Below, in pieces: positions 47,837 through 48,976 of a DNA stretch of 64,000 nt. The first letter of the stretch is position 1, and the number at the start of each line of letters is the position of its first letter. The position numbers and the translations under genes were made by a program. Below the pieces are notes generated by a model that saw nothing but the letters and a program-made list of their open reading frames with translations, ran no database searches and was not told where the DNA came from. The stretch is from an uncultured bacterium (GTDB taxonomy: Bacteria > Patescibacteriota > Patescibacteriia > Magasanikbacterales > GWA2-37-8): contig CALCZC010000025.1 of NCBI GenBank assembly GCA_937903605.1, forward strand, positions 67,275 through 131,274, written 5' to 3'.

Positions 47837-48976
47837 GTGAGTATGAGAAATAAAAAAATGCCTAAAGTGTTAGTCTGTCTCTCCGGTGGCGTAGATTCTT
47901 CTGTAGCCGCCGCTCTTTTGGTTAAGGCCGGATATGATGTTACCGGCGCATTTATGGTGAATTATGATGATAAGGATGCTCTGACAAGTTGCTGGCGAGG
48001 GGATTACCAGGATGCTCTGCGAGTCGCTGCTAAACTTCATATTCCGCTTTTACGTTTGAATTTTGTTCGGGAATACAAAAAAGCGGTTTTGGACTACATG
48101 TACTCTGAGTACAAAAAAGGCCGGACACCAAATCCGGATGTTTTGTGCAATAAATTTGTGAAATTTGGGTTTTGGTTGAAAAAAGCGAAAAGTTTGGGTT
48201 TTGATTACCTTGCGACCGGTCATTACGCCCGACTTTCCAGTTTGTCATCCCGCGGGCCAAAGGCCTCCCTTTGGGAAAGGCGGGAATCCAGTATCAAATT
48301 GGTTAGCGCTGTTGACGATAATAAAGACCAAACATATTTCCTTCATCAATTGAACCAATCTCAATTAAAGCATATCATGTTCCCCATAGGCGAATATACC
48401 AAAGACCAAGTTCGTAAATTGGCGGATAAATTTGATTTACCAACTGCCAAAAAAGAAGAAAGCATGGGTATTTGTTTTATCGGGGAAGTACCGATGAAAG
48501 AATTTTTACAAAAAAAGATTAAATCAAAAAAAGGAAAAGTGATTTTAAATAATAGTAAAGAAGTTTTGGGCGAACATGACGGTGTCCCTTTTTATACTAT
48601 CGGACAAAGATTGGGTTTGAATAATAAACCTTATTTTGTTGTTAAAAAAGACGCAAAGAAAAATATTTTGTTTGTCGGAACTGAAAATGATCCGGAACTT
48701 TTGAAGAAAGAAATTGAAGTTGAAAATGTAAATTGGATAAGTGGACAAAAGCCGAAATTGCCGTTAAAATGTGAAGTAAGACTGCGACATAGACAGACAC
48801 TACAAAAGTGTAGTGTCGAGTTCATAAAGTCTATAAAGTCCGTAAAGTCCATAAAGACGAAAGCGAATAATAATGTAATTATTAAGTTTCAAACCCCGCA
48901 ACGGGCCGTCACCCCCGGACAGTTTGCAGTTTTATACAATAAAGGTGTTTGTTTGGGTGGAGGAGTGGTAAAATAA
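47837..48976 (+). CDS. mnmA: tRNA-specific 2-thiouridylase MnmA (with an in-frame repeat-derived insertion)
   Basis: PP-loop SGGVDSS. Conserved …NKDQTYFL…. Alternative starts at ATG 47843 or 47858. Confidence 0.85.
   Translation: [379 protein letters not shown]
48242..48291. repeat. family-1 palindromic repeat unit inserted in-frame inside mnmA
   Basis: ttgtcatcccgcgggccaaaggcctccctttgggaaaggcgggaatccag. The unit is near-identical to copies at 27987 and 62426. Confidence 0.8.

Follow-up and report, generated by a model that had tools for sequence, protein, structure and literature searches.

A probable CGTC-class palindromic repeat carried in frame by mnmA of an uncultured Magasanikbacterales bacterium

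The CGTC-tagged repetitive extragenic palindromes (REPs), as defined by Di Nocera, De Gregorio and Rocco in 2013 (PMC3733652), consist of a CGTC, TGTC or CCTC tag, a stem of 8–9 bp that starts from AT, a loop of 4–5 nt (4, or 5 in families 2–4) and a CCA tail, with aberrant loops in a few families. Family CGTC-1 was equated with dRS3 of Neisseria and with RPE-6 of R. conorii, and two Rickettsia palindromic elements (RPEs), RPE-6 and RPE-4, were assigned to the class; translated intragenic copies were recorded in DNA-repair genes, tRNA synthetases and TruB, and no dedicated transposase is known (PMC3733652). More recently, dRS3 was extended to the 28-nt Neisseria Transformation Sequence (NTS; CGTCATTCCCGCGMAVGCGGGAATCYRG), whose copies are intragenic in 2% of cases in N. 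meningitidis (Chenal et al. 2025, PMC11893778). SsnA, a 94-aa single-domain GIY-YIG protein (cd10448), cuts single-stranded DNA (ssDNA) just 5' of the NTS; the GTC before the NTS stem governs Ssn cleavage, and for Ssn binding the base that matters most is the C directly 3' of the palindrome (PMC11893778). Here, we analyze a 50-nt palindromic element inside mnmA in 64,000 nt of DNA from an uncultured Magasanikbacterales bacterium (hereafter the window: contig CALCZC010000025.1, positions 67,275–131,274, assembly GCA_937903605.1). Probably, it is a CGTC/TGTC-tagged REP of the dRS3/NTS and RPE-6 class, lying at the tip of a surface β-hairpin in the MnmA catalytic domain and translated there as a tolerated passenger. 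No earlier report of REPs or of MITEs (miniature transposable elements with inverted repeats) in Patescibacteria, or the candidate phyla radiation (CPR), was found in the literature, and the text of the 2025 Ssn paper (PMC11893778) does not mention this phylum.

The host gene is an intact mnmA. Its open reading frame (ORF) is uninterrupted (47837/47843–48976), with an ATG start at 47843 that agrees with the N-termini of orthologues. The product scores 408 bits against NCBIfam NF001138 (cutoff 284) and 373 bits against TIGR00420, and MnmA/TrmU chains in the PDB match it at E ~1e-83. The PP-loop SGGVDS occupies residues 14–19, and the catalytic DxxC + C motif of MnmA, as defined in PMC8053098, is present as D99xxC102 and C211, all three residues being invariant. 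The PP-loop SGGxDS, the DxxC + C motif, a full-length match above a curated cutoff and the fold of MnmA are all present. A search for the identical protein retrieved no recorded sequence.

Within this gene, the element is the highest peak of G+C content (62%, against 35% for the window). The 50-mer ttgtcatcccgcgggccaaaggcctccctttgggaaaggcgggaatccag occurs exactly once in the window and never in shuffled sequences. Read 5' to 3', it is laid out as TGTC, ATCCCGC, GGG-CCAAAGG-CCTC-CCTTTGG-GAAAG, GCGGGAAT and CCAG, and its minimum free energy (MFE) structure, at -21.3 kcal/mol, forms both stems: a nested hairpin of 7 perfect base pairs and an outer stem in which ATCCCGC and GCGGGAAT make 6 perfect pairs around a loop of 25 nt that includes the nested hairpin. 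Short copies of the same family lack the inner module and read TGTC, ATTCCTGC, GAAG, GCAGGAAT, CCAG, i.e., a tag, an 8-bp stem starting from AT, a 4-nt loop and a CCA tail, with ATTCCTGC/GCAGGAAT or ATCCCCGC/GCGGGGAT as the arms. The 50-nt unit is thus a composite, a 28-nt REP with a 21-nt hairpin nested in its loop, and the reading frame is kept. The initial annotation had described a dispersed palindromic repeat inserted in frame in the MnmA loop after the GHYAR motif, and both points are borne out, the first by the exact 50-mer and the family copies that shuffles do not produce, the second by the uninterrupted ORF and by a gap of 12 residues that falls exactly on the element in every PDB alignment. 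Its estimate of about 16 added residues needs a small correction, for the element encodes 17, a net gain of 12 residues over solved MnmA structures and of 17 over the shortest CPR orthologues. Five of the six frames of the short form are free of stop codons; the sixth, on the reverse strand, is closed by the TGA contained in ATGACA. The enzyme presumably tolerates the insert because the tip of the hairpin is permissive in structure and the REP is stop-free in so many frames. At its gathering thresholds, Rfam returned no family for the element in a scan of the window, and a 51-aa query made of the REP-encoded peptide in triplicate retrieved no other host protein at E <= 10.

The same repeat is scattered through the window. 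There are three matches to GGGCCAAMGGCCTCCCTTTGGGAAAGGC, the 28-nt core of the long form (28001, 48254 and 62438), against none in 100 shuffles, and five to the 27-nt short form, again with none in shuffles. Four further copies (18104, 20744, 23475 and 44127) share the arms and have other loops, which makes the family modular, with constant arms, a variable centre and loops from 3 to ~30 nt. Ten of the 12 copies are intergenic; beside the one within mnmA, the exception is a short copy from which a Wzy-like membrane protein of the O-antigen-ligase family takes its final 13 codons (LSFLRKQESSGSN*). The description of the unit as intergenic outside mnmA therefore applies to those ten and breaks down at the Wzy-like ORF, whose tail (62481–62522, minus strand) reads the REP in the same frame as mnmA does. 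No consistent flanking direct repeats of the sort that a target-site duplication would leave were seen at any copy. All features are collected in Table 1.

Table 1. Position, strand and basis of the mnmA gene, its inserts, the repeat copies and the candidate nuclease gene in the window.
Feature	Position	Strand	Basis
mnmA (tRNA 2-thiouridine(34) synthase), 377 aa, intact	47843..48976	+	ORF, PDB matches, NCBIfam, motifs
Long-form REP in frame in mnmA, residues 134–150	48242..48291	+	exact match, family core, PDB gap, AlphaFold2 model
Unpaired 5' tag TGTC (CGTC-class)	48243..48246	+	sequence
Outer 5' arm ATCCCGC, 7 nt (8 nt in canonical copies)	48247..48253	+	sequence, folding
Nested inner hairpin CCAAAGG-CCTC-CCTTTGG, the module setting the long form apart from the short	48257..48274	+	MFE structure
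Outer 3' arm GCGGGAAT and tail CCAG	48280..48291	+	sequence, folding
Second in-frame mnmA insert, 9-nt tandem repeat (AAGTCYRTAAAG), 10 encoded residues	48818..48858	+	model confidence (pLDDT), orthologue comparison
Intergenic long-form copy, followed by a tandem short copy at 28044–28070	27988..28038	+	core and short-form match
Intergenic long-form copy, paired with an inverted short copy	62425..62475	+	core match
Short REP forming the 3' end of the Wzy-like ORF 62481–63863, C-terminus LSFLRKQESSGSN*	62495..62521	-	short-form match, ORF
Intergenic short REP	21657..21683	+	short-form match
Intergenic short REP	23712..23738	+	short-form match
Intergenic short REP, sole window copy fitting the published SRM pattern	44065..44091	+	pattern match
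Intergenic long-form variant, inner stem CCCGAAGG/CCTTTGGG	44127..44177	-	folding
REP arms around another 25-nt loop (ACCCGTCAAGCGGGTATAAACTACA), starting 3 nt past the GIY-YIG stop codon	18104..18151	+	folding, neighbouring ORF
Sister copy of the 18104 REP variant	20744-20791		sequence comparison
REP arms around a 30-nt GC-rich inner hairpin	23475..23527	+	folding
Single-domain GIY-YIG nuclease gene, 79 aa, candidate partner	17862..18101	+	Pfam GIY-YIG, 73 bits

Set against the definition of family CGTC-1, the window family agrees in its main features. The mnmA copy and all short copies have TGTC ahead of the stem; after the 3' arm comes CCAG, in the mnmA copy as in most of the others; and the family is multicopy, dispersed and mainly intergenic, with its 12 copies in 64 kb. 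The copies often form inverted pairs, a minority lie in ORFs and are translated, and no transposase is associated with either family. The short copies, including those in related mnmA genes discussed below (loci L001, L002 and L004; here and in what follows, L and P numbers label the compared loci and homologous proteins, respectively), have the 8-bp stem with its AT start and the 4-nt loop, whereas the long copy in the window mnmA has a 7-nt 5' arm and a 25-nt loop with a nested hairpin. The host phylum also differs, Patescibacteria/CPR not being among the five phyla of the 2013 survey, and MnmA is absent from the host genes in its supplement (PMC3733652).

The resemblance to NTS is closest in the short form, which lies near the NTS consensus and keeps both the GTC before and the C after the palindrome, and a small GIY-YIG gene sits beside one copy. 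A single mismatch to CGTCATTCCCGCGMAVGCGGGAATCYRG separates the mnmA copy of L004 and a copy of L009 from NTS, two separate a copy of L014, and five a copy of L001. In the window, no copy comes within one mismatch, the short copies differing at 3–4 positions (range 3–5) and the long form needing a 21-nt gap. The Ssn-related motif (SRM) pattern HGTCWYN(0-2)YYVSBRHN(0-5)WNVSBRGN(0-2)RNCYNB fits one window copy out of 12, at 44065–44092 (shuffles average 0.02), and not the mnmA copy. Two differences from the Neisseria system are that NTS copies are seldom intragenic and that the neighbouring GIY-YIG protein looks UPF0213-like rather than demonstrably of the cd10448 type.

The parallel with Rickettsia palindromic elements drawn in the initial annotation is supported and is closer than proposed there, since the short form fits the CGTC class, which holds RPE-6 and RPE-4 (PMC3733652). 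As with RPEs, a palindromic repeat is found both between genes and in frame in conserved genes, as a predicted surface insert, and kinship with RPE-6 would follow from the class assignment (PMC3733652). RPE-1 is likewise a selfish palindrome in frame in housekeeping genes, including those of tRNA-modification enzymes (Ogata et al. 2000, cited in PMC3733652). It differs in length (~100–150 nt, against units of 28–51 nt here), in its unrelated sequence and in its hosts, obligate intracellular Alphaproteobacteria, and in the window's relatives one hairpin tip is reused by several repeat types. RPE-1 inserts are reportedly tolerated because they land in surface loops. Two other kinds of short repeat share some features of the family. 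The GTAG REPs with their REP-associated tyrosine transposases (RAYTs; together, REPtrons) share a short tagged hairpin, an unpaired tetranucleotide, clustered copies and some intragenic ones, but the tag here is TGTC rather than GTAG, and no RAYT or IS200-like gene was found in the window. MITEs, too, are dispersed non-autonomous elements of small size, whose terminal inverted arms enclose a variable centre; the window copies differ in that they show no visible target-site duplication, have arms of 8 bp and lack a detectable parent insertion sequence (IS), and they do not qualify as MITEs. More generally, Pfam searches of ~40 window ORFs, outside the first 12 kb and a ribosomal-protein block, revealed no RAYT, IS200-like or other transposase; where precomputed Pfam calls cover the first 12 kb, they name GT2 glycosyltransferase and NTP-transferase genes. 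Translated intragenic REPs and RPEs are already known from Rickettsia, and what this locus adds is the nested hairpin, the reuse of one tip by several repeat types and a visible recombination patch.

The history of the site can be read from related genes. The proteins nearest to the window MnmA are those of Candidatus Magasanikbacteria, and gene order is conserved at the orthologous loci (TraD/TrwB-like, zinc-finger ORF, mnmA, CBU_0592-like, alaS). In a DNA alignment, mnmA of L001, L002 and L004 has a short REP whose codon position and frame are those of the window copy, reading TTG TCA TYC C.. ... TCC AGT (LSSLRRQGSS or LSFPRRRESS) with the loop GAAG, and differs there from the window gene by the 21-nt inner module; L006 (protein P0007) has no REP, and L009 has a different, AT-rich simple repeat and no REP. 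A metagenome scan with the long-form core retrieved seven contigs, six with intergenic copies (behind a terminator, within a 5' leader or among clustered REPs) and one, L093, with the long form at the same position of another mnmA. The exact short-form pattern is limited to Magasanikbacteria-like loci among 99 loci compared. With the loop masked, nucleotide identity is 96.5% between L093 and L006, 89.9% between L093 and L001, 85.7% between the window and L001, 84.5% between the window and L093, and ~79–82% between L002 or L004 and the rest, so that the long-REP gene of L093 and the REP-less gene of L006 are near-identical outside the loop. Judging from these alignments, the insertion is not fresh in this genome, a short REP being already at the site in relatives with ~80–86% nucleotide identity. 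The four states, i.e., short (L001, L002, L004), long (window, L093), none (L006) and AT-rich repeat (L009), imply several changes among genes at least 79% identical. An orthologue free of the repeat but with the same loop sequence would have spoken against an insertion, and none was found: L006/P0007, L009, all non-CPR MnmAs and many CPR MnmAs have a short hairpin and no such loop, and wherever an orthologue has a similar peptide, its DNA contains the repeat. That the insert results from misassembly or is a palindrome by chance is vanishingly improbable, for although metagenome assemblies can collapse or chimerise at repeats, the same architecture recurs in independent ENA, NCBI, JGI and Logan assemblies, the window sequence is found exactly in another record, and shuffles yield zero matches.

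Every variant at the site preserves the frame, the short one with 30 nt and the long one with 51 nt. Both genic long copies are of a 47-nt version, which gives the long/short difference of 21 nt, against 48 nt in six of the seven distinct intergenic long copies. An intergenic copy (L088/L092), also of the 47-nt version, weakens the idea that only genic copies have the 5' arm shorter by 1 nt, as a change that restores the frame. This persistence of the frame makes it extremely improbable that the segment is removed or bypassed at the level of RNA or translation and only looks in frame by accident. A hairpin this stable (-21 kcal/mol) and GC-rich, in an mRNA rich in AT, would suit such a process, and a GC-rich element lacks stops in most frames whatever the selection; however, frame-keeping in every variant and the 47-nt length of the genic copies speak for translation, no Rfam family or intron-like feature was found, and we know of no self-excision chemistry for a 50-nt hairpin.

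Elsewhere in the CPR, REPs of other subtypes are found at the tip of this hairpin, some in different frames and some reversed. Between GHY and the end of KDQTYFL, sampled non-CPR MnmAs have 25–30 residues, forming a tight hairpin, whereas CPR proteins have up to 71; in 120 of the Candidatus Magasanikbacteria MnmAs, the segment from GHYA to KDQTYFL spans 27 to 55 residues between the anchors. Of 119 homologues, 13 have the peptide signature of a CGTC-type REP in the hairpin; three forward frames and one reverse frame are represented, which makes descent of all from one event impossible. Other REP types verified at the DNA level include an inverted dimer in L014, CHCEERSDEAIS encoded by TGTCATTGCGAGGAGCGAAGCGACGAAGCAATC in L024 and a further type in L028. 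By manual count, the tag starts 24–28 nt past the first base of the glycine codon of GHYA in all four DNA-verified types. A second MnmA loop, after YTIGQR, holds REPs in L014, L017 and L023. In L017, in-frame REPs are also found in the adenylation domain of the NAD-dependent DNA ligase (LigA) and in a phosphoenolpyruvate (PEP)-utilising enzyme (4201–4250 and 12932–12958); the MnmA of this locus, from another Patescibacteria genome, has at least four separate GC-rich inserts. A different GC-rich repeat, CCCCTCTC...GAGAGGGG followed by TAGGGGAGAG, was noted in the window at 18197–18290 and in L099 at 3560–3680 and 3950–4010, and PLxxGExxGG-type peptides in the MnmA loops of other CPR bacteria (P0018, P0022, P0076, L017) may be its translation.

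An AlphaFold2 (AF2) model of the window MnmA, built with 59 homologues, has a mean predicted local distance difference test (pLDDT) score of 89.5 and superposes on the E. coli MnmA–tRNA complex (2det) with template modelling (TM) scores of 0.87/0.90 and a root-mean-square deviation of 2.1 Å. Strands 130–133 and 151–154 pair into a hairpin, for which no description was found in the MnmA literature consulted, and the REP-encoded residues 134–150 between them score ~64–68, with a short helix at 143–148. The insert is thus predicted to be an excursion, modelled with low confidence and flanked by two paired strands, in an MnmA whose remaining structure is modelled confidently and whose catalytic residues are intact. 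Could the peptide have been co-opted, for example as a basic extension, rich in Arg and Lys, that makes contact with tRNA or a partner protein and is kept by protein selection? Its charged, basic character (RGPK...ERRE) in an RNA-binding enzyme, the persistence of an insert at the site in several lineages and the short modelled helix would all suit such a role. Yet the peptide is unconserved, the same tip accommodating short, long, dimeric, other-frame and reverse versions as well as unrelated repeats; the close relative L006 lacks it; the changes between L001 and L004 keep pairing and not residues; and model confidence is low. We regard co-option as very unlikely.

What appears to be kept is the palindrome. 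The REPs of L001 and L004 differ at four positions, which amount to two compensatory swaps of a base pair (one from C-G to T-A, the other from T-A to C-G) that alter four amino acids and leave the palindrome perfect. Moreover, the REPs are less diverged than their flanks, with 30/30 identical positions against 155/180 in the flanks between L001 and L002, and 48/51 against 62/90 downstream between the window and L093. Together, these observations suggest that the nucleic-acid hairpin, not the peptide, is preserved or repeatedly refreshed from other copies. Recombination has also acted here. Compared column by column, L093 equals L006 nearly everywhere except for a ~110-nt patch around the hairpin, where it equals L001 save for the inner module; a patch matching L001 in an L006-like background is the mark of homologous recombination rather than a new insertion or transposition. 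In the reading of the insert as a translated, tolerated passenger, the MnmA peptide would be carried along while it is the palindrome, as DNA or RNA, and not the amino acid sequence that is preserved, and the site would turn over by gain and loss of the nested hairpin, possibly by gene conversion from other genomic copies, and by allelic replacement through homologous recombination, the last being directly visible in L093.

The same data raise the question of whether the hairpin is kept in mnmA for a function of the nucleic acid, as a recognition site for a small GIY-YIG ssDNA nuclease (like NTS for Ssn) that trims single strands during uptake or replication and so shapes recombination tracts, or as an mRNA structure that sets stability or translation speed, with the peptide as a by-product. 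We consider this rather unlikely. In its favour, the palindrome survived two compensatory swaps while four residues changed, the REPs are more conserved than their flanks, the recombination patch of L093 is centred on the REP, and the mnmA copy retains the GTC 5' and the C 3' of the stem that are critical for Neisseria Ssn (PMC11893778). The only candidate partner seen would be the 79-aa GIY-YIG protein, a small nuclease of the general kind shown to cut ssDNA beside Neisseria NTS, whose gene stops 3 nt before the REP variant at 18104, an arrangement shared by its orthologue in L096. Against it, the closest solved relatives of this protein are of the UPF0213/YhbQ type (1zg2 and 1ywl); adjacency to a REP holds in two of five distinct homologue loci (window and L096) and not in L097/98, L099 or L020; the SRM pattern fits a single window copy; concerted evolution or repeated replacement would also yield perfect palindromes and low divergence; and REP-less L006 and L009 show that the site is dispensable. 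Nor does the element act as a transcription terminator as far as its sequence tells, a reading that was rejected since it has no T-tail and was not called in the terminator scan. A regular association of the GIY-YIG gene with flanking REPs was not borne out at the four further homologue loci, and the gene is weakly linked to the repeat. In L096 (715–1077), the GIY-YIG orthologue is called as 120 aa and reads through a REP variant of the 18104 type, a REP-derived extension of the ORF.

CPR bacteria presumably depend on DNA uptake. A more general proposal, which we put forward as distinctly unlikely, is that REP/NTS-like hairpins in CPR housekeeping genes are maintained as DNA sites for small GIY-YIG ssDNA nucleases that set the ends of recombination tracts and so drive mosaic exchange of alleles. 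If it were true, cutting by GIY-YIG nucleases during uptake or repair could underlie the ~110-nt patch of L093, and the NTS–Ssn relationship would extend to a UPF0213-like clade and to coding sequences.

Several points count against the insert being a neutral, translated member of the CGTC class. We infer translation through the element from the intact frame. The long form departs from the 4–5-nt loop of the class definition and from the SRM pattern. The search for a mobilising enzyme covered 64 kb of the genome. Repeated insertion, in-situ gene conversion and inheritance with loss may each fit parts of the data. The greater conservation of REPs relative to flanks could reflect a DNA-level function rather than neutral passage, and the hairpin may have a functional effect on tRNA binding.

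The locus shows the dRS3/NTS/RPE-6 class of tagged hairpins to be present and active in Patescibacteria, and in streamlined CPR genomes its repeats are written into conserved enzymes, i.e., MnmA (in two loops), LigA and the PEP-utilising enzyme. Such inserts inflate and diversify the lengths of CPR proteins, can mislead alignment, phylogeny and structure prediction, and yield spurious 'hypothetical proteins' and extended ORF ends. The mnmA hairpin offers a compact natural experiment, since genes of near-identical background have the repeat absent, short, long, dimeric or in another frame, and it can be used to ask whether the repeat is a passenger or a DNA-level signal, and which enzyme handles CGTC-type REPs.

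The window mnmA has a second in-frame insert, the 9-nt tandem repeat of Table 1, which is absent from L001, L006 and L093 and whose residues 333–339 are modelled with pLDDT <50. An identical 23-mer from it, AAGTCTATAAAGTCCGTAAAGTC, is also found in the mnmA hairpin of L004, at another site of the gene, and related copies outside mnmA in L022 and L018 point to a further dispersed mini-repeat. Upstream of mnmA (47680–47800) lies an AT-rich periodic spacer (aaaactcaaaac... then ttttgacttttgacatttgaattttgac) that resembles the simple repeats in the mnmA hairpin of L006 (KSKIKNL) and L009 (RKLKVESRKLK). Downstream, a 1015-aa ORF without a Pfam match (49402–52449) separates the CBU_0592-like ORF from alaS and is absent there in L004 and L006.

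Much of the window upstream of mnmA is occupied by a defence-type island of ~26 kb (17862–44200), absent at the syntenic loci L001, L002 and L006, where a 699-aa gene is directly followed by HIT/NUDIX. Its genes include GIY-YIG, Bro-N, RhuM/Fic, two paralogous HD genes, RusA, SNase, RadC, NYN and a NucS-like nuclease, together with a Type I restriction-modification system (hsdM/S/R, 29108–38226), an AbiU2 HEPN protein, an ADP-ribosylglycohydrolase and a PD-(D/E)XK nuclease. The leftmost 10 kb of the island contain seven of the 12 REP copies. A DUF3800-V RNA was matched by Rfam within the island (26254–26349, minus strand; 72.9 bits against a gathering threshold of 37.4). Finally, a hairpin family of AACACTTCAGCCTAnAGGTTGAAGTGTTTT followed by Ts has six copies between 19221 and 27990, downstream of island genes, and recurs after GIY-YIG homologues on other contigs (L097 and L099); it looks like a shared terminator module.

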